A stretch of DNA of 53,719 nt. Origin: Parcubacteria group bacterium (GTDB taxonomy: Bacteria; Patescibacteriota; Minisyncoccia; Phycocordibacterales; Phycocordibacteraceae). The position numbers and the translations under genes were made by a program. Below are positions 9,180 to 15,731 of this stretch, piece by piece; positions within the stretch are counted from its first letter, which is position 1, and every line of letters begins with the position of its first letter. The notes beneath the pieces are model-generated. The model was not told the origin of the DNA and did no database searches. It saw only the letters and a program-made list of their open reading frames with translations. The stretch covers positions 1 to 53,719 of the forward strand of contig JAQBRL010000021.1 of NCBI GenBank assembly GCA_028286525.1, in the 5' to 3' direction.

Positions 9180-10349
9180 TTAATGCGAACCGAGATACAT
9201 ACGCGTTATCGGACCGAAGTTACCGATGGCAGGCGATATTCCCACATTCGCTTGATATTCAGCGAGGGCTGCACGCGTCAGCGCGCCGAAATAGCCGGTA
9301 GCGCCAGCTGAAGCGAGCCTGCCGGCTGCGGAGCCGGTGCTGCGGGATATCAAGAACTGCTGCAAGAAGGTCACCTGGCCGTTACGCATCCCTTGGCGCA
9401 GATCGATTCCAATGGTCTGGACTTGGGTACTGGGCGAAGAAACCATGCCGTTCGCGCCTGTGTTGGTGTTTACGGATGTGGTCACCGTAGTCGTGGTCGG
9501 AGACGGTGAAGCAGATGACGAGGAGGATGAAGTCGTGGTCGTATTGGTCGTGGTTGTAGGAACTGGCGGCGCGACCGTCACAGCCGCGCTCGATCCTGAA
9601 GGCGCGGTAACGGCATTCGAATCGAGCGTAACCGCGGTCTGGGCGAGCGCGCGTCCTTCGAGCGACGCGCCCGTATTCAAGACGATCGCGGTCTGGTCGA
9701 GGATATTTCCTTTGAAGCTCGCGGTCGTGCCGATGGTCGTTTGTCCGGCAACTACCCAGAAGACATTCTGCGCTTGCGCACCTCCGGCAAGCACGATGTG
9801 CACGCCCGAAGCTACGTTCAAGCCCTGCGCTATCTGAAGTATCCAGACATCGTTCGCGCTTCCGGAGAGCGTAACGTCGGTCGGCACGGTCACCCCTGTG
9901 CCCCATTTATATACGCCGGGAGCGAGCGTAAGGCCCCCGATATTGCCCGCCCCGAGTTCGGTCACGTTTGGCGCGCGGCCAGCTGCGTCCGTGTAGGCGG
10001 TCTGCATGTCGAGTACGGCGGTCGTAAGGGCGGAAGGGGTAGGGTTCGCGTAGTCGGACGCATAGAGCTTTCCAGTAACGAGCGCGGATGTGGAATAGGC
10101 GCCAGCTGCAGGAAGCGTCAGCGCGAAGCCGGTGAGGTAGCTTGCGGCGGCTGGACTAAGTCCGATGTCGCCCGTGACCGAGGTAGAGCCCGTGGTCGAG
10201 ACCCCGGTCTTCGTCAGGATGGCGTAATTGCCTGCGGTCCCGAGATTGACTGCCGCCGGTCCTGCCGCGAGCGCTAGAGTAGGGATAATGAGACTGAACG
10301 CTAAAGAGACAGCGACAAGCGCTGCCGAGGCAGTAGTATTGGTTTTCAT
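9180..10349 (-). CDS. Secreted DUF3494 (ice-binding-like beta-solenoid) protein with C-terminal peptidoglycan-binding domain
   Basis: LGTAGNYAILTKTGVSTTG..TGDIGLSPAA..GNILDQTAIVLNTGASLEGRALAQTAVTL is typical of DUF3494. T/S-rich linker. C-terminal GYFGALTRAALAEYQ is PG_binding_1-like. Start taken at MKTNTT. Confidence 0.8.
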   Translation of the reverse strand: MKTNTTASAALVAVSLAFSLIIPTLALAAGPAAVNLGTAGNYAILTKTGVSTTGSTSVTGDIGLSPAAASYLTGFALTLPAAGAYSTSALVTGKLYASDYANPTPSALTTAVLDMQTAYTDAAGRAPNVTELGAGNIGGLTLAPGVYKWGTGVTVPTDVTLSGSANDVWILQIAQGLNVASGVHIVLAGGAQAQNVFWVVAGQTTIGTTASFKGNILDQTAIVLNTGASLEGRALAQTAVTLDSNAVTAPSGSSAAVTVAPPVPTTTTNTTTTSSSSSSASPSPTTTTVTTSVNTNTGANGMVSSPSTQVQTIGIDLRQGMRNGQVTFLQQFLISRSTGSAAGRLASAGATGYFGALTRAALAEYQANVGISPAIGNFGPITRMYLGSH

Positions 10350-10479
10350 ATAGTTTTTATGGGCGGATAGTCGAGCGTGCTTGCAGAGGGCAAACACCGA
10401 AGCGATGTAAAGAGGAGGCCAACGACCTTTCAGTTCGATATATTCATAACGCGTTCATCATGAAGGTTTAATGAAGAGG

Positions 10480-11202
10480 CTAAAGCCTGTTTTGGGTAGC
10501 TTTGTATACAGGTCCCGCTGGATGAGACGTGCGGTATAGATACCGCAATCGTATACGGTTGGCGAGTACCACCACGGCACCGAATACCAGGAAGAAGGGT
10601 ATGAAACCGAGCGCGGCGCGGGCAACGCCGGCGTATCCTTGCAGCCGTGTCGGATCGACAAAGAAGTACGGGTAGCTATGGGTGAATACACCGAGCAGTT
10701 CCACATAGAGCAGGTAGAAGGCGGTCACCGCTATCCATACGAGAACGGCCCACCACCGTACCGGCTTCTTCGTCGGGAAGGCGACCCAGTCGATGGCCAT
10801 CACTATCGGCATGACGTAATGAAAGACGCTGTTTATCCATGGAATTGAATCCTGCAGCGTACCCTGATGCCCGGGGCCTCGCAGAAAGAGGGTATAGGTC
10901 ACTCCCGTGGCGATGATGCAGAAGGTAGCCAGCCCGCGCAGTCGCTCAAAGCGCGGCGAAAGCTCGTGGCCCATCAGGTCCGCTCGAGCTTCGGCACAGA
11001 GTACGACCGCGACAAGGATATTGCTCAATATCGTGAAGTAGCTCGCGAAGAGCCCTACGTAGGCGAGGGTTATGCCGCCCGCTACGATAATGCCGTACGC
11101 GAACTGAATGACGAGCGCCGCAACGATAAGAAGGGCGAAACCGAATTGATAGAGTGTGCGAAAACGCAGCACGTGCTGTTTCATGTATTCATATATACGC
11201 AT
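10480..11202 (-). CDS. Polytopic membrane protein (possibly Pr6Pr/FAR-17a-like)
   Basis: 240 aa with 6-7 TM helices and a YFTILSN motif. The family call is tentative. Confidence 0.6.
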   Translation of the reverse strand: MRIYEYMKQHVLRFRTLYQFGFALLIVAALVIQFAYGIIVAGGITLAYVGLFASYFTILSNILVAVVLCAEARADLMGHELSPRFERLRGLATFCIIATGVTYTLFLRGPGHQGTLQDSIPWINSVFHYVMPIVMAIDWVAFPTKKPVRWWAVLVWIAVTAFYLLYVELLGVFTHSYPYFFVDPTRLQGYAGVARAALGFIPFFLVFGAVVVLANRIRLRYLYRTSHPAGPVYKATQNRL

Positions 11203-11289
11203 ACGGTAGGATAATTCTTGCGTAGCAAGACAGAGAGCCCAAGCCTTTCGGAAAACGCTATACCTTCTTATCGCATTGCCAACTCGGCC

Positions 11290-11451
11290 TCATTTCAGGA
11301 ATCTCAAGCAAAAGGCAGCAAAAACCAGGACGATACCGATGTTTACGATGAGTCGCTCCCAGAACCGATCCCTAAAGAACAGTACATCGACACCGACGAT
11401 AATGGCTATCAGAACCACGACGCAAACGGCGATGAGTATCGGCCTTGTCAT
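11290..11451 (-). CDS. 53-aa hydrophobic peptide (last cassette; not in ORF track)
   Basis: Own translation: MTRPILIAVCVVVLIAIIVGVDVLFFRDRFWERLIVNIGIVLVFAAFCLRFLK. Lies 50 nt downstream of repeat copy R7, in the same orientation as the other cassettes. Confidence 0.35.
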   Translation of the reverse strand: MTRPILIAVCVVVLIAIIVGVDVLFFRDRFWERLIVNIGIVLVFAAFCLRFLK

Positions 11452-11500
11452 TGCTTAAAACCATACCACCCCGACCCTGATAAAAGCCTAAACGAAGTCA

Positions 11501-11533
11501 TCCGTTGGATGGAGGATGTTCGAACCTTGTATA
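11501..11533 (-). repeat. Cassette repeat R7
   Basis: Minus strand: TATACAAGGTTCGAACATCCTCCATCCAACGGA. Confidence 0.75.
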
Positions 11534-11744
11534 CTATTTGAATGAAAAGCCTGAAGTTGGATAAGTCGAGAAAGCTCTTCGTGCTAAGCGTATTAATTAT
11601 CTTGGTATCTCTCGGTAAAATCCTCTTCGATCTCCATAATCATTACCTGATTTGTACCGTCCGTGAGGGAATTAAAACCTGCTGGTAAAGATCGGCTCCG
11701 CGAGTAAGCGAAGCTTGTCGCACTCGCCTCATTTCGCTCACTCT

Positions 11745-11766
11745 GCTTCGCTGGGTGAAGTGTATA
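11745..11766 (-). repeat. Cassette repeat R6 (truncated copy)
   Basis: Minus strand: TATACACTTCACCCAGCGAAGC. It lacks the GGTTCGAACATC segment. Confidence 0.5.
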
Positions 11767-11807
11767 AAAGAAGCCACCCGACAGGGCCGGGCGGCTCCAT
11801 CGGGTGG
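11763..11807 (-). terminator. Intrinsic terminator after the methyltransferase cassette
   Basis: CCACCCGA..TCGGGTGG stem followed by CTTCTTTTATAC on the minus strand. Confidence 0.65.
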
Positions 11808-11816
11808 GGTTGACCC

Positions 11817-12524
11817 TCACCGTGGTACGCAGATGTGCACATAGTCGCCGTATCCGTTCGGACGACGGTGCGGCCAGAGCTGCTTCGTTGTGACTCGAAA
11901 GTGTCGCTCGAGGAGCGGCAATCTCTTCTTGAACGACGGCTTGTACTCGTGCCTCAGCACATCATTCATAAGGATATCGACCGTCCATCCGAGAACTTCA
12001 TCAGGCGCACCTGCTTCGATGGTGTACTTGAGATATTCGTAGCCGAGCTTTGCTGCTGCAAGGCAGCGCTCCTCTTCGTTCGTGTAATCGTCGACGTAGC
12101 AGTCGGAGATGACTGCAACTCCGTCCGGCTTTAGCATTCGGGCGATGTTGGCGATGGCGACTCCCTGGTCCTCATAGGGAACGTGATGCAGAGCGCCGGT
12201 GCACAGCACCATATCGAGACCATCACGCGGGACCGCACACCAGTACCGCACGTCGCCCTGATGGAACTCGATGGGAGCATAGCGTTTCCGTCCGAATTCC
12301 ACGTATCGCTCATCGATATCAACGCCCATGAGTGAAAGGTCAGGACGAGCCTTTCCGATCTCACCCAACAGGTAGCCTGTGCCGCACATGATGTCGAGCA
12401 CCTGACATCCTTCGGGAGCCTTGAGCGCATAGTTGAGAACGGTCTGAAGGGAATCGCGATAGGGCCAGTATCCCAGGCCCCGCTCATAGATTTCAGCTTC
12501 AGGAAGCGGTTTCATCTCGGTCAT
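11817..12524 (-). CDS. Class I SAM-dependent methyltransferase
   Basis: Motif I VLDIMCGTGYLLGEIG, plus VDIDERYVEF and a LKPDGVAVISD post-I region. GGGAGGG lies 9 nt before the ATG at 12524; the track start is a TTG at 12530. Confidence 0.85.
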   Translation of the reverse strand: MTEMKPLPEAEIYERGLGYWPYRDSLQTVLNYALKAPEGCQVLDIMCGTGYLLGEIGKARPDLSLMGVDIDERYVEFGRKRYAPIEFHQGDVRYWCAVPRDGLDMVLCTGALHHVPYEDQGVAIANIARMLKPDGVAVISDCYVDDYTNEEERCLAAAKLGYEYLKYTIEAGAPDEVLGWTVDILMNDVLRHEYKPSFKKRLPLLERHFRVTTKQLWPHRRPNGYGDYVHICVPR

Positions 12525-12599
12525 TTTCAATGGCCCTCCCGAGCCGGGTTGCTGGAAAAGAACTTCGGAAGCACCATACCATTTATATATAAAATGTCA

Positions 12600-12636
12600 G
12601 CTCCTGGCTGGAAGATATTCGAACCCGGTGTGTATA
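12600..12636 (-). repeat. Cassette repeat R5
   Basis: Minus strand: TATACACACCGGGTTCGAATATCTTCCAGCCAGGAGC, followed by CTGACA-16nt-TATGGT. Confidence 0.75.
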
Positions 12637-12719
12637 AAAAGAAGATGACCGCCCTCTGGGAGTGCGGCCATCGGGGGAGCGGCGAGGAAGTTTCTCCGCC
12701 AGGTGACCGCGAGTGGGTG

Positions 12720-12917
12720 TTATTTGCCAAGATGTTCATCACGACGGACCCACTGATATTGGCAACACCCGTGGTCAGCGGTTCTGTTTCGAGCGACATC
12801 CTGAGGCGCGTCGTGACAGCTACATCCGCACGTCGTAGGGTTTCCTATGGCGTAGTCTGGTCCCTGGGTCCGTTGCGATGTCGCCTCACGCCTAAATGGC
12901 CTAAAAAGGTCAAACAT
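12720..12917 (-). CDS. 65-aa Cys-rich protein (CGCSCHD..HGCCQY motif)
   Basis: ORF 67 nt downstream of R4 and a TTGACA box, with a hairpin plus T-tract after it. Shares a cysteine motif with the 13089 ORF. Confidence 0.5.
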   Translation of the reverse strand: MFDLFRPFRREATSQRTQGPDYAIGNPTTCGCSCHDAPQDVARNRTADHGCCQYQWVRRDEHLGK

Positions 12918-12983
12918 TCTGCTAGTTCCTAACTGGTGATTCCTAAATATAGGGTACGTTGAAAAAAGCTATTGTCAAGTTTT

Positions 12984-13022
12984 GCTCCGCTGGCTGGAGG
13001 ATGTACGAACCTCTTTTGTATA
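12984..13022 (-). repeat. Cassette repeat R4
   Basis: Minus strand: TATACAAAAGAGGTTCGTACATCCTCCAGCCAGCGGAGC. Confidence 0.8.
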
Positions 13023-13057
13023 AAAAAACCGCCCCTTCCGCACGAAACGAAAGGGGT
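13022..13057 (-). terminator. Intrinsic terminator after the 137-aa Cys-rich gene
   Basis: CCCCTT..AAGGGG stem followed by CGGTTTTTTTATAC on the minus strand. Confidence 0.65.
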
Positions 13058-13088
13058 TAGGATTTTCGTCTCGCGCGGAGGTGGGCGG

Positions 13089-13502
13089 CTAGATTGAACG
13101 CACAGTTGCTATGTGACGGAACTCCTCGCTTTGGTCGAGCAGAGACTGCATACGAGCAGCCGGAGCGCAGCATTCTAGAAGCGTGCGAACGGCGGGCATG
13201 AACTCTTCATTGATGCGTTCCTCGCAGTCAGGCGAAAGGTCAGTTGCCTTCATCAGCGTTTTGACGCCGTTGCCGTAGGTAAGGTCGGACAGCGCAACAA
13301 GATTGTGCTCGTGCCCGTCAATCTCGAGGATAGATTCGACCTGCTCGCCGGCCAGATGCTGCTTGCACACTTCTTCGGCCATCGACTCCGCCACTGTACG
13401 CATCACGGAGTGATAGTGACAGCAGTGAGTGGGGCACTCCGTGCCGTCCTTGTCATGGCAGGTACAAGAACAGGGTCCTGCGAAGGGACTCATGAGCTTC
13501 AT
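13089..13502 (-). CDS. 137-aa protein with N-terminal Cys-rich motif (CSCTCHD..HCCHYH)
   Basis: GGAGA lies 6 nt before the ATG at 13502; the track start is a TTG at 13508. Cys cluster at the N-terminus, then an acidic helical body with further Cys (CC at residue ~115). Confidence 0.65.
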   Translation of the reverse strand: MKLMSPFAGPCSCTCHDKDGTECPTHCCHYHSVMRTVAESMAEEVCKQHLAGEQVESILEIDGHEHNLVALSDLTYGNGVKTLMKATDLSPDCEERINEEFMPAVRTLLECCAPAARMQSLLDQSEEFRHIATVRSI

Positions 13503-13560
13503 TGTCAATCTCCACTATTGTTGGGCCGAAGTAGTTATATCACAAATCTAGAGAATGTCT

Positions 13561-13593
13561 GCTCCGCTGGCTGGAGGATGTTCGAACTCGTTA
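13561..13593 (-). repeat. Cassette repeat R3
   Basis: Minus strand: TAACGAGTTCGAACATCCTCCAGCCAGCGGAGC. Overlaps the stop codon of the 205-aa gene. Followed by CAGACA-16nt-TATAAC. Confidence 0.8.
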
Positions 13594-14208
13594 GAAAAGA
13601 ATCAGCGACAGGATAATCATCCAATAAAAGGCGAGAATACTATAAAAACCGCGCTGGTAACCCAATTCTTCTCGATCTGTAATTAATTTGGAGGTACATA
13701 CTCCTACAAGAAAGTAGAAGGGTATGACTTGCAGGCATGAGAGGTGGGAAAAGAAGCCGAGGTTGGCTGGTAAGTAATAGAACACATACGATCCAAACAG
13801 CAGAAGAAAGAGCCCGTTGTATGCAAGTTCAAGCACAACCGCCTCGGCACCCATGATGAGTCCGGGGCGCAGGTATTCCTTCGGACTAAAGTGATGTATG
13901 GCTGTATCGTTTAGATAGCGGTAGTAGCCCAGGCCACCCCAGATGAAAAAGAAAAAATAACTTATGTCACCGCCATGCGCGGGGAAGAGGTGGTAATTCC
14001 AAAGCGGTGTACTGAAGACTATTTGCCATAAGTTGTTGGTAAGAATCTCCCCGCTTACCCCGAACAAACAGAAAACAGTGATATAGAAAGTGAGCTTTCG
14101 TAGTTCGATCTCAATGATCCTTCGCGTATACAGACAAAGACCAATATAATAAATAAGACTAAACGCCAGGGTGTACGCAAGTGCACTTATCGGCGTAACT
14201 TCTATCAT
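13591..14208 (-). CDS. Polytopic membrane protein (about 6 TM), markedly AT-rich
   Basis: 205 aa, aromatic-rich TM segments. TATACT lies 7 nt before the ATG. GC is visibly lower than the flanks. Confidence 0.7.
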   Translation of the reverse strand: MIEVTPISALAYTLAFSLIYYIGLCLYTRRIIEIELRKLTFYITVFCLFGVSGEILTNNLWQIVFSTPLWNYHLFPAHGGDISYFFFFIWGGLGYYRYLNDTAIHHFSPKEYLRPGLIMGAEAVVLELAYNGLFLLLFGSYVFYYLPANLGFFSHLSCLQVIPFYFLVGVCTSKLITDREELGYQRGFYSILAFYWMIILSLILF

Positions 14209-14242
14209 TCATTCAAGTATATCTCTACCTAACCTGGTCTGG

Positions 14243-14280
14243 GCTCCGCTGGGTGGAGGATGTTCGAACTGTTTTGCATA
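14243..14280 (-). repeat. Cassette repeat R2
   Basis: Minus strand: TATGCAAAACAGTTCGAACATCCTCCACCCAGCGGAGC. Confidence 0.8.
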
Positions 14281-14329
14281 GAAATGAAGAAGCCCACCGA
14301 GAAGTAGTGGCCTGATGGGCGACTTCTTG
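14281..14329 (-). terminator. Hairpin terminator after the 82-aa gene
   Basis: AAGAAGTCGCCCA..TGGGCTTCTT stem followed by CATTTCTAT on the minus strand. Confidence 0.5.
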
Positions 14330-14354
14330 GCGGGCGTGCTGTTCCTTGTTTCTC

Positions 14355-14603
14355 TTAGGCAAGCGGTTGGATATTGAACTGGGTGAGGACTCGGGCGGCG
14401 ACAGTGCGCAGGGCGGTGGACTGTTCGAGCTCAATTCCACGCGCCTCAGTGATGCCTTCTTCGACCACTTCCATGCCGCCGTTCTGGCTAGCAATGAAAG
14501 TATCGAAGTCTTCCTTCGACGTCCAAGTATGCCAGGCGATGACACCCTCGAAGTGACCTGCTTTGGACGTGCCGCGGACTGCAGCGATGTACTGCTCGGC
14601 CAT
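14355..14603 (-). CDS. 82-aa hypothetical protein (first cassette)
   Basis: AAAGGGAG SD 4 nt before the ATG. Lies downstream of R1 plus CTGACA-17nt-TATAAC. No family recognised. Confidence 0.6.
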   Translation of the reverse strand: MAEQYIAAVRGTSKAGHFEGVIAWHTWTSKEDFDTFIASQNGGMEVVEEGITEARGIELEQSTALRTVAARVLTQFNIQPLA

Positions 14604-14656
14604 AGGACTCCCTTTCTGTAACCGTTATAGTTATATCACACTTCTAAAATATGTCA

Positions 14657-14695
14657 GCTCCGCTGGCTGGAGGATGTTTGAACCTGTTTTGTATA
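14657..14695 (-). repeat. Cassette repeat R1
   Basis: Minus strand: TATACAAAACAGGTTCAAACATCCTCCAGCCAGCGGAGC. Confidence 0.8.
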
Positions 14696-14723
14696 AAGCA
14701 GACACCGCTCGAGGCGGTGTCTG
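14691..14723 (-). terminator. Intrinsic terminator (perfect 11-bp stem)
   Basis: GCAGACACCGC-CTCGA-GCGGTGTCTGC followed by TTTATAC on the minus strand. Confidence 0.75.
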
Positions 14724-14766
14724 CTAGCCCAGAGTGTGGGGTCACCATCGCGGGAGGACGCGCACG

Positions 14767-14794
14767 TGTATAGTCGCTAAAACAAAGGTGTCAA
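14767..14794 (-). promoter_or_regulatory. Sigma-70-type promoter (TTGACA-16nt-TATACA)
   Basis: Perfect -35 hexamer at 14789-14794 (rc) and TATACA at 14767-14772 (rc). Only about 70 nt separates it from the terminator at 14691-14723. Confidence 0.5.
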
Positions 14795-14841
14795 TACAAA
14801 TCCACAGATAGGGACGATTTATACTCCCAAAATCCTATTCT

Positions 14842-14963
14842 GCTCCGCGGGCAGGACACTCGAGCTACACTCGCTGTCCACTCTGCGGATTTTGCTTCGC
14901 AAAATGCTCGCATGAGTTTCTTCGAATCCTACACGAACGCGTTCCAGGCGTACTCTGCGGAGC
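14842..14963 (-). pseudogene. Scrambled tRNA-Asn-derived segment (att-like duplication)
   Basis: Ends with the 15-nt GCTCCGCGGGCAGGA identical to the tRNA 3' end and starts with GCTCCGCAG (the tRNA 5' end with 1 change). Contains an inverted AGGATTCGAA and a 10-nt direct repeat ACTCTGCGGA. No cloverleaf. Confidence 0.5.
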
Positions 14964-14964
14964 T

Positions 14965-15002
14965 GAGAAACGCAAAATCGCCCGTTCAGGGCGATTGCGT
15001 TT
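14965..15002 (-). terminator. Intrinsic terminator after tRNA-Asn
   Basis: AAACGCAATCGCCC-TGAAC-GGGCGATTTTGCGTTT followed by CTC on the minus strand. Confidence 0.65.
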
Positions 15003-15050
15003 GAAAACTAAGCTCCGCGGGCAGGATTCGAACCTGCGACCGATCGATTA

Positions 15051-15605
15051 CACGTATCTAATCATTTCTGAAAAGGGTGGACTATATCATCGCCCGTTCC
15101 TAGGAACTGGGGCGGGAGGCGCTTCCGATCGCTTTCGCGACAGTACTCCCTTGCGGGATAGTCTCTGAACCTTCAATCCGATTCCTCGGAAAGCTTGGCT
15201 GCTGATTACCCTCGTCTTTCTCGTTAGGGCTTCCAGCAATTCACCTCCTTTTCATCCCTGAATTACTTCTAGGGAGCTGCGTAATGTTGTCGTGCACTTC
15301 GGCGTGGCAGTTAGCGCATAGGAGGACGCACTTTTCCAATTCGGCGCGCATCTTTTCCCACGATCTGGTGAGACCTCGAGAAGAAAGACCGAAATCCTTC
15401 TTTGAGGGATCAATATGATGGAAAACCATTGCGCGCCTGCATCGGGCGTATCCGCATACAATGCATTTGCCGCCGCCGTACTCGAGAGCCATGTCGCGAA
15501 GTTTCTTTCGTCGCTTCGCAACCGCTTTTTTCATGTACTCTGCACGATCAGCATAGGTTCGTGTCTCTGGCATATACACATGAGTATACCAGGGACACAC
15601 GTACC
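15051..15605 (-). mobile_element. Group I intron (IC3-like), 555 nt
   Basis: 5' exon ends in U and the intron ends in G. The core matches remembered Azoarcus/Tetrahymena cores: CAGCAGCCAAGCTT (15191-15204 rc), GAAGGTTCAGAGACTA (15159-15174 rc) and GATATAGTCC (15079-15088 rc). Confidence 0.8.
15241..15573 (-). CDS. HNH homing endonuclease encoded inside the intron
   Basis: CIVCGY..MVFHHIDP..LLCANCHAEVH gives the CxxC..HH..CxxCH HNH signature. Start taken at MPETRTY, 33 nt into the intron. Confidence 0.8.
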   Translation of the reverse strand: MPETRTYADRAEYMKKAVAKRRKKLRDMALEYGGGKCIVCGYARCRRAMVFHHIDPSKKDFGLSSRGLTRSWEKMRAELEKCVLLCANCHAEVHDNITQLPRSNSGMKRR

Positions 15606-15731
15606 ACAGTCGACTGCTCTACCGCTGAGCTACCGCGGAGCTTAGTTTTCAACCTCTGAACATGCCCTCCGATGAGGGCTTCCGTATTCTAGCTGAAAAG
15701 CACGAAACGGCAACGGGTATACTGCGAGGAT

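Follow-up and report, generated by a model that had tools for sequence, protein, structure and literature searches.

The question raised by positions 15013–15639 of the stretch of DNA considered here is what gene they contain, and whether that gene works. The stretch, referred to below as the window, is the whole of contig JAQBRL010000021.1 (53,719 nt; assembly GCA_028286525.1, Parcubacteria group bacterium), and its fmt protein has relatives in Patescibacteria/Parcubacteria. At 15013–15639 no tRNA is detected by ARAGORN in its plain mode or by the Rfam tRNA model. The first-pass annotation, made from the sequence of the window, had proposed a tRNA-Asn(GUU) gene that a group I intron carrying an HNH endonuclease splits between anticodon positions 35 and 36, a proposal borne out by a covariance-model match, by covariation among relatives and by intronless alleles. 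I consider it highly probable that the region is a working tRNA-Asn(GUU) gene, in which a mobile group I intron has inserted between positions 35 and 36 and carries a homing-type HNH nuclease in the loop of its first paired region (P1). The group I fold, the junctions, the constraint on the spliced tRNA, the presence or absence of the intron at the same locus and the selection acting on the protein are each directly supported.

The split gene, its parts and its promoter-like and terminator-like flanks, described below, all lie on the minus strand. The first exon (15606–15639; 34 nt, TCCGCGGTAGCTCAGCGGTAGAGCAGTCGACTGT) comprises tRNA positions 1–35 and ends in C32 U33 G34 U35, and the second (15013–15050; 38 nt, TAATCGATCGGTCGCAGGTTCGAATCCTGCCCGCGGAG) runs from U36 to G73, with the CCA end not encoded. 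Joined in the manner proposed, the exons form a cloverleaf of 72 nt, identified by ARAGORN as tRNA-Asn(gtt), with the anticodon loop CUGUUAA and with U1-A72 and G73, a combination typical of bacterial tRNA-Asn. The insert of 555 nt between them (15051–15605) was also located correctly. It is preceded by a U, begins GGUAC and ends ACGUG; its first base, a G, pairs with C15281, and its last base, at 15051, is the omega G. The insertion thus separates U35 from U36 within the anticodon loop. What the first-pass annotation described is all found at the coordinates given, and well past anything that chance would produce.

The window sequence by itself is compatible with two joins, the second lying 2 nt upstream at both ends, and relatives were for that reason used to choose between them. 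Scanned for at one genome per species, the HNH family turned up in at least 589 genomes, most of them from Patescibacteria. Eighty loci were fetched and one (L001) was added from a contig syntenic with the window, giving 81 related loci, of which 77 are complete and 4 are cut by contig ends. Statistics on the junctions refer to 78 sequences, those on the ribozyme to an alignment of 46 cores (from GCAG to the terminal G), those on tRNA stems to 64 distinct exon joins and those on residues of the HNH protein to 36 aligned sequences.

The comparison upholds the junctions of the first-pass annotation, although they are not unique when judged from the window. In every one of the 77 complete loci tRNA-Asn is split at CUGU/UAA, and the intron ends in G in all 78 sequences, the base before the terminal G being variable. 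The tetranucleotide GCAG is found next to the 3' end of the open reading frame (ORF), or 6–9 nt into introns that lack the ORF (78/78), where it pairs with C32–U35 in such a way that the U.G wobble falls on U35 (CUGU/GCAG, again 78/78). The first base of the intron and the base 5' of GCAG are paired in 73 of the 78 sequences (G-C in 54, A-U in 13, C-G in 4 and wobble pairs in 2).

The spliced products are as constrained as one might expect of tRNAs in use. Over the 64 exon joins, 99.2% of cloverleaf cells are paired, and compensatory changes are found in 15 of 21 tRNA pairs, including all five of the anticodon stem and five of the seven of the acceptor stem. U1-A72, G73 and the loop CUGUUAA are present in all 64 distinct relatives. 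The two strands of the anticodon stem, like those of the acceptor stem, lie on opposite sides of the intron, and covariation of these stems across it speaks strongly against a pseudogene, with the implication that splicing takes place.

The intron may also be absent from the same place. A scan of metagenomes yielded uninterrupted tRNA-Asn genes, one of which (L134) is identical to the window's exon join at 72 of 72 positions. Four loci (L195, L187, L104 and L095) show the window's gene order, def-fmt-hpf-grx-tRNA-Asn, without the intron, the fmt of L195 being 70% identical to that of the window, and L001, likewise syntenic, has the intron. The existence of syntenic loci with and without it means that the intron is optional at the orthologous locus.

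The assignment of the insert to the group I introns is confirmed by the Rfam model Intron_gpI (RF00028), which matches 15305–15058 end to end (model positions 1–253) at 66.5 bits (E = 9.9e-15), against a curated cut-off of 50 bits. Related introns score 58–94 bits with the same model, and relatives with a minimal core 34–46.5 bits, under the cut-off. RNAalifold predicts P2, P3, P4, P5, P6/P6a and P8, together with two hairpins between the 5' strand of P7 and the 3' strand of P3; P7 itself (GACUA/UAGUC) was entered by hand. In the 46 cores, the cells of ten helices are paired in 95.9% of cases, as compared to 75.2% in shuffles, and compensatory changes are seen in 37 of 51 ribozyme pairs. Sliding the partners by 1–3 columns lowers the covariation score from 0.53 to no more than 0.106.

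Read from the 5' side, the core begins with the internal guide sequence C-GCAG (15277–15281), the 3' strand of P1, which pairs with C32 U33 G34 U35 and with intron base +1. The P2 hairpin (15257–15273) has compensatory changes in 6/6 pairs and a GNRA-type loop in relatives. It is followed by the 5' strand of P3 (15242–15248) and by P4 (15238–15233 with 15205–15200; changes in 5/6 pairs), which encloses P5 (15229–15227 with 15211–15209); P3 and P5 were placed by the alignment of cores. P6 and P6a occupy 15169–15199, with changes in all seven pairs of P6a. The 5' strand of P7 (GACUA, 15159–15163) pairs with its 3' strand (UAGUC, 15084–15080) to form the helix of the guanosine-binding site, both strands being invariant and complementary in 46/46 cores, and the P3/P7 pseudoknot core is in this sense conserved. 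Between the strands of P7 lie the two extra hairpins (15126–15158; compensatory changes in 3/4 and 6/6 pairs), the 3' strand of P3 (15115–15121, from the same alignment) and P8 (15091–15114), followed by J8/7. The core closes with P9 (15058–15075), capped by a GAAA loop; a GNRA loop is found here in 42 of 46 relatives.

A check of the two junctions by P1 and P10 pairing had been suggested at first pass. P1 with GCAG is present in all 78 sequences, but P10 amounts at most to a pairing of UAA with UUA, which some relatives lack. A conserved P10 was considered and rejected: AUUA, 5' of GCAG, could pair with UAAU of exon 2, but it fails to follow the variable base 39. P10 is regarded as weak because the pairing bases do not track base 39 in relatives.

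The first-pass annotation also likened the core to IC3 tRNA introns, quoting three strings, AGCCAAGCTT, GAAGGTTCAGAGACTA and GATATAGTCC. All three are indeed in the intron, but they correspond to the R and S elements and the P4'/P6 junction, which are generic and common to most group I introns. What remains of the likeness is the compact core and the site in an anticodon loop (U35/U36), a location expected of IC3; set against it are the generic nature of the motifs, the two extra hairpins and a nearest annotated relative that is a phage thyX intron. Subgroup IC3 is said, after Michel and Westhof in 1990, to have a minimal core with nothing between P7 and P3'. In the window that place is taken by the two hairpins supported by covariation, which form a 35-nt insertion (15158–15126) with respect to the Rfam consensus; hairpins P7.1 and P7.2 lie at this position in subgroup IA. 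Four relatives (L032, L044, L074 and L080) have the minimal form, without either hairpin. Three of them (L032, L074 and L080) are those that match Rfam below threshold, at 34–46.5 bits, and L044 finds no Rfam match. Other relatives have one long hairpin at the P7.1/P7.2 position. The IC3 label is not established for the window intron.

The compact core, with its GNRA-capped P2 and P9, also resembles introns of the Azoarcus type, in which the GNRA loops of P2 and P9 dock into receptors in P8 and P5. Motifs like CCUAAG...UAUGG, read by eye, occur in P5 or P8 of several relatives and are not clear in the window. In more general terms, the window intron shares with other bacterial tRNA introns its place in a tRNA anticodon loop, a 5' splice site after U with a U.G wobble in a short P1 made from anticodon-loop bases, and a compact core that lacks P5abc and has GNRA loops on P2 and P9. 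The hosts of those introns in the literature searched are tRNA-Leu, fMet, Ile2 and Arg, with insertion at 34/35 in tRNA-Leu and just 3' of the anticodon in the others; the tRNA-fMet intron of Synechocystis also carries a homing nuclease. The window intron differs from them in its host (tRNA-Asn), its site (35/36), the two hairpins at the P7.1/P7.2 position and an HNH-type nuclease set in the P1 loop and overlapping the guide sequence, and its family differs in residing in the phylum Patescibacteria and in some genomes labelled Acidobacteriota. The host and site had been flagged as unusual. They do differ from the classical sites, but they are common, given at least 589 species genomes.

The closest annotated ribozyme is the thyX intron of the Alteromonas phages vB_AmaP_AD45-P1 to P4 (105.7 bits with the Rfam model), whose core is 74.7% identical over 85%. 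The two have a near-identical P5, both extra hairpins and an ORF 5' of the core in common. In contrast, the host of the phage intron is a protein-coding gene, its guide sequence is different, and a comparison of its HNH protein with that of the window finds no homology beyond the motif. Since the ribozymes are close and the HNH proteins unrelated, ribozyme and nuclease have separate histories. In the phage AD45-P1 itself (L204 1440–1730; 67.5–67.8 kb) thyX is split, the gap containing the ribozyme and genes for HNH and GIY-YIG proteins; the record annotates only the split thymidylate synthase and the HNH and GIY-YIG genes, and no intron.

The HNH ORF (15241–15573) starts where it was said to start, about 33 nt into the intron: its ATG, at 15573, is the 33rd intron base, and it encodes 110 amino acids before a TGA at 15243–15241. 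An in-frame GTG at 15579 is an alternative start, and the family alignment places the start at MPETRTYADR. The motif CxxC..HH..CxxCH, also noted at first pass, is present and extends to CxxC..HH..CxxCH..H. Its zinc and catalytic residues (C37, C40, H52, H53, C86, N88, C89, H90 and H94) are invariant in the 36 sequences. Many members of the family have a precomputed match to PF01844, and the family profile matches the HNH domain of a group II intron maturase (6me0) with E = 0.0034. An AlphaFold model (predicted local distance difference test, pLDDT, 83.8) contains strand-strand-helix elements. The ratio of nonsynonymous to synonymous substitution rates (dN/dS), at 0.045–0.057 with respect to the three nearest relatives, indicates strong purifying selection and hence a functional protein. 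More than 1000 relatives are present in the protein collection, the named ones coming from Kaiserbacteria, Nomurabacteria and other Patescibacteria. The window protein is predicted from these features to be a small zinc-binding HNH nuclease, with its activity and target likewise predicted.

The reading frame and the ribozyme are closely interlocked. The ORF fills the loop of P1, reads across the guide sequence and P2 and stops within P3. The conserved C-terminal ITQLP of the protein is encoded by AUU ACG CAG CUN CCN, that is, by the guide sequence and the 5' strand of P2. Free-standing copies of the gene have lost ITQLP, that of L035 ending instead in ...LINIPR, inside exon 1.

At the 5' end of the ORF cassette there is a hairpin (15561–15598) of unusual stability (dG -18.5 kcal/mol, z = -4.78; 0 of 200 shuffles were as stable). 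It contains TGGTATACT (15591–15583), an extended -10-like motif, and the start codon at 15573 is buried in its 3' strand. A similar motif with an inverted repeat precedes the ORF in 44 of 82 loci when a strict pattern is required, and the design of motif plus hairpin is found ahead of intronic and free-standing copies alike, as well as in the cyanophage S-WAM2. By analogy, the motif may be an internal promoter that yields a nearly leaderless mRNA, and the hairpin may block translation on the long precursor. A hairpin that blocks translation on a long precursor is described for intron nucleases of phage T4.

Relatives of the protein, 43–63% identical, are present in 476 phage records, and some of them stand beside tRNA genes. 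In Synechococcus phage S-WAM2 an uninterrupted tRNA-Asn(GTT) adjoins the homologous gene (45% identity over 102 aligned residues, E = 2e-24), whose stop codon (TAG) is U8-A9-G10 of the tRNA. ORF44 of Salmonella phage Felix O1 (43% identity) similarly overlaps the start of a tRNA-Ile. These genes and that of the window are alike in protein family and in the proximity of HNH gene and tRNA, and S-WAM2 also has the hairpin before the start codon; they are unlike in that the neighboring phage tRNAs have no intron, whereas the window gene lies inside the P1 loop of one. Among Patescibacteria, L035 has the arrangement of S-WAM2, with the stop at U8-A9-G10, but its tRNA holds an ORF-less intron. Free-standing HNH genes that end in the 5' part of a tRNA were seen at L035 3001–3303, L202 1498–1809 and L203 1312–1797. 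The ORF of S-WAM2 is longer than annotated, starting at ATG 1498 rather than 1555. Just upstream of the free-standing HNH gene in L032, a stretch at 2890–2950 is like the 5' half of another tRNA (GGGCGGGTGGCGCAATGGCTAGCGTAC...).

The 77 complete loci all have an HNH gene in or beside the split tRNA-Asn. It is inside the intron in 68. In six it is found immediately upstream of exon 1, in the same orientation, the intron (193–242 nt) being without an ORF, and in three it is divergent and adjoins the tRNA, the ORF-less intron measuring 232–344 nt. Each free-standing bacterial copy is closest (69–81% identical) to a different intronic copy and not to another free-standing one, which suggests that the gene may have moved repeatedly between the two positions. 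According to Bonocora and Shub, reportedly in 2009, a mobile intron originates when a nuclease that stands free and targets the site of intron insertion enters the intron, and a pathway of intron invasion, or "collaborative homing", is reportedly described by them and, in the same year, by Zeng, Bonocora and Shub. Repeated moves of the HNH gene would fit this idea. Five of the loci (L056, L063, L070, L072 and L073) come from genomes labelled Acidobacteriota or Deltaproteobacteria (the labels being Pyrinomonadaceae, Blastocatellia, Acidobacteriota and Deltaproteobacteria), and in these one long hairpin replaces the two extra ones.

The intron of the window belongs to a large family on which the accessible literature says little. 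Lui et al. (2021; PMC8172020) found that intron-containing tRNAs were needed to complete the tRNA sets of circularized genomes of the candidate phyla radiation (CPR) and note as an aside that CPR tRNAs are difficult to detect because of the group I introns they contain. The tRNAs concerned are not named in the supplements of that article, and literature searches found no accessible paper on a group I intron in tRNA-Asn. Because the intron is so common, a 2025 preprint by Nakagawa et al., whose subject is the group I introns found within Patescibacteria tRNA genes, may well describe it.

A plausible course of events can be put together from these elements. The precursor would be transcribed from the tRNA promoter, and the ribozyme would fold, forming P1 between C32–U35 and the GCAG about 320 nt downstream. 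An external guanosine would then attack after U35, and the freed 3'-OH of U35 would attack after the terminal G (15051), the anticodon stem together with a weak P10 probably keeping the exon halves in place. The result would be a 72-nt tRNA, to which CCA is presumably added later. The P1 loop houses an independent nuclease gene cassette, complete with a hairpin and a -10-like signal. Its product most likely cleaves tRNA-Asn genes that have no intron, close to the insertion site, whereupon repair would copy the intron in (homing), while splicing by the intron would render the insertion harmless to the host.

Three other explanations of the locus deserve consideration. The first concerns the identity of the tRNA. 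In its intron mode ARAGORN does find a split tRNA in the raw DNA, but its preferred call is tRNA-Thr(tgt), with the junctions ACT/GT...ACG/TGTAA and an intron of equal length, and about half of the related loci are called tRNA-Thr in the same way (a few being called His, Leu or Ser). The junctions would then lie 2 nt upstream at both ends (ACU/GU...ACG/UGUAA), with the intron between positions 33 and 34 of a tRNA-Thr(UGU), and in the window both alternative sites also follow U and G. In relatives, however, the base before the shifted 3' site is A, C or T as frequently as it is G, whereas the Asn junction ends in G always, and the shifted anticodons would be UGU, CGU or AGU. The pairing of GCAG with CUGU puts the U.G wobble at U35, and P1 is extended by a covarying pair between the first base of the intron and the base preceding GCAG. 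U1-A72 and G73 are found in all the sequences, and the intronless syntenic genes read CTGTTAA, one intronless gene matching the Asn join completely. A tRNA-Thr is on these grounds hardly conceivable. It is also very unlikely, though less so, that the gene is a tRNA-Asn killed by a selfish insertion, the work being done by an intact copy elsewhere. Inspection was limited to the window, whose only other tRNA is a tRNA-Glu, and such a copy would lie outside it. Against a dead gene speak the perfect covariation of the exon halves across the intron in 64 distinct sequences, a ribozyme core conserved through compensatory changes, the position of the split gene in the syntenic place of the relatives' uninterrupted gene, and the need of Lui et al. 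(2021; PMC8172020) for intron-containing tRNAs in completing CPR sets.

The remaining explanation touches the protein. Splicing in vivo might need a protein, and the HNH protein might be kept as a splicing cofactor, or for some other benefit to the host, rather than mainly as a homing nuclease. This would make sense of a dN/dS of about 0.05 maintained across deep divergence, of the overlap of the ORF with the guide sequence, P2 and P3, of a P1 that must form across about 320 nt and of the retention of the gene in at least 589 species genomes. Yet all the HNH catalytic and zinc residues are invariant, and ORF-less introns of 193–344 nt exist at the same site, from which it follows that the ribozyme can do without the ORF in cis. 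The phage relatives of the protein adjoin tRNA genes without any intron, and maturase activity has been described for LAGLIDADG proteins and is not known for HNH proteins. I regard a role of this kind as unlikely. There remain several points that weigh against a functional tRNA-Asn gene with a mobile, homing intron. P1 is short (four exon pairs plus one), with its strands separated by about 320 nt of coding sequence, and P10 is weak and not conserved. The window protein scores 17.7 bits with the Pfam HNH family (PF01844), below the cut-off of 21.4 bits, and the top Foldseek matches of its model are all HNH nucleases, but with E values of 0.059 or more, which are not significant. Strong and lasting selection on the nuclease is not expected under a simple selfish homing cycle. 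Self-splicing, the activity and target of the nuclease, the use of the promoter and essentiality are all predictions.

If the gene is single-copy, then an essential tRNA depends on self-splicing, a dependence that the first-pass annotation had also envisaged. It is possible, and I put it forward tentatively, that the interrupted gene is the only tRNA-Asn in hundreds of species of Patescibacteria and that the family preserves both stages of the birth of a mobile intron, the HNH gene standing free at the 5' end of tRNA-Asn and the HNH gene inside the P1 loop, with repeated switching from one to the other. The decoding of every Asn codon in those species would then depend on a ribozyme, and such unusually strong selection on the nuclease would be a sign of continuing homing or of a role on which the host has come to rely. 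There is also a consequence for annotation. Genomes that carry the intron will seem to lack tRNA-Asn, because standard tRNA finders miss the gene or call it tRNA-Thr, and this will distort estimates of completeness and claims about coding capacity in bacteria with small genomes. The nuclease outside the intron, inside it and beside intron-free phage tRNAs offers a natural series for testing how mobile introns assemble.

The DNA flanking the tRNA has features of its own. A consensus scan picks out a promoter-like site (TTGCCG-16-TAGAAT, 15686–15713) upstream of the tRNA, in a region that yields no more such sites than shuffles do, and a terminator-like hairpin with a T-run (14976–14996), 17 nt after the tRNA. 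The 5' leader (15640–15652) is complementary to the 3' trailer (15012–15001), lengthening the acceptor stem to 20 bp, so that acceptor stem and the 13 bp of leader and trailer make a perfect 20-bp inverted repeat (15633–15652 with 15001–15020). A general processing stem of leader and trailer was considered and rejected: the 13-bp extension is unique to the window, being absent from 77 relatives, including the closest.

Over the region 13532–15026, on the downstream side of the tRNA, a segment similar to the 3' end of tRNA-Asn occurs five times, the real end included. There is an exact 15-nt copy of that end at 14839–14856, and a 61-nt family has three copies (14628–14688, 14214–14274 and 13532–13592), with small ORFs between copies. 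The repeats look like leftovers of repeated integrations beside the tRNA; a search between 6.4 and 13.5 kb for an integrase to explain them found none. In L001 the DNA downstream of tRNA-Asn (10929–14770) encodes a UvrD-type helicase together with an ATPase that has an OLD-like TOPRIM domain, forming a Gabija-like defense pair, in place of the window's genes, which marks the tRNA flank as a variable island. Farther along in the window, 9180–10397 on the minus strand encodes a protein of 405 amino acids in which an ice-binding-like domain (256 bits) is accompanied by a weak peptidoglycan-binding domain.

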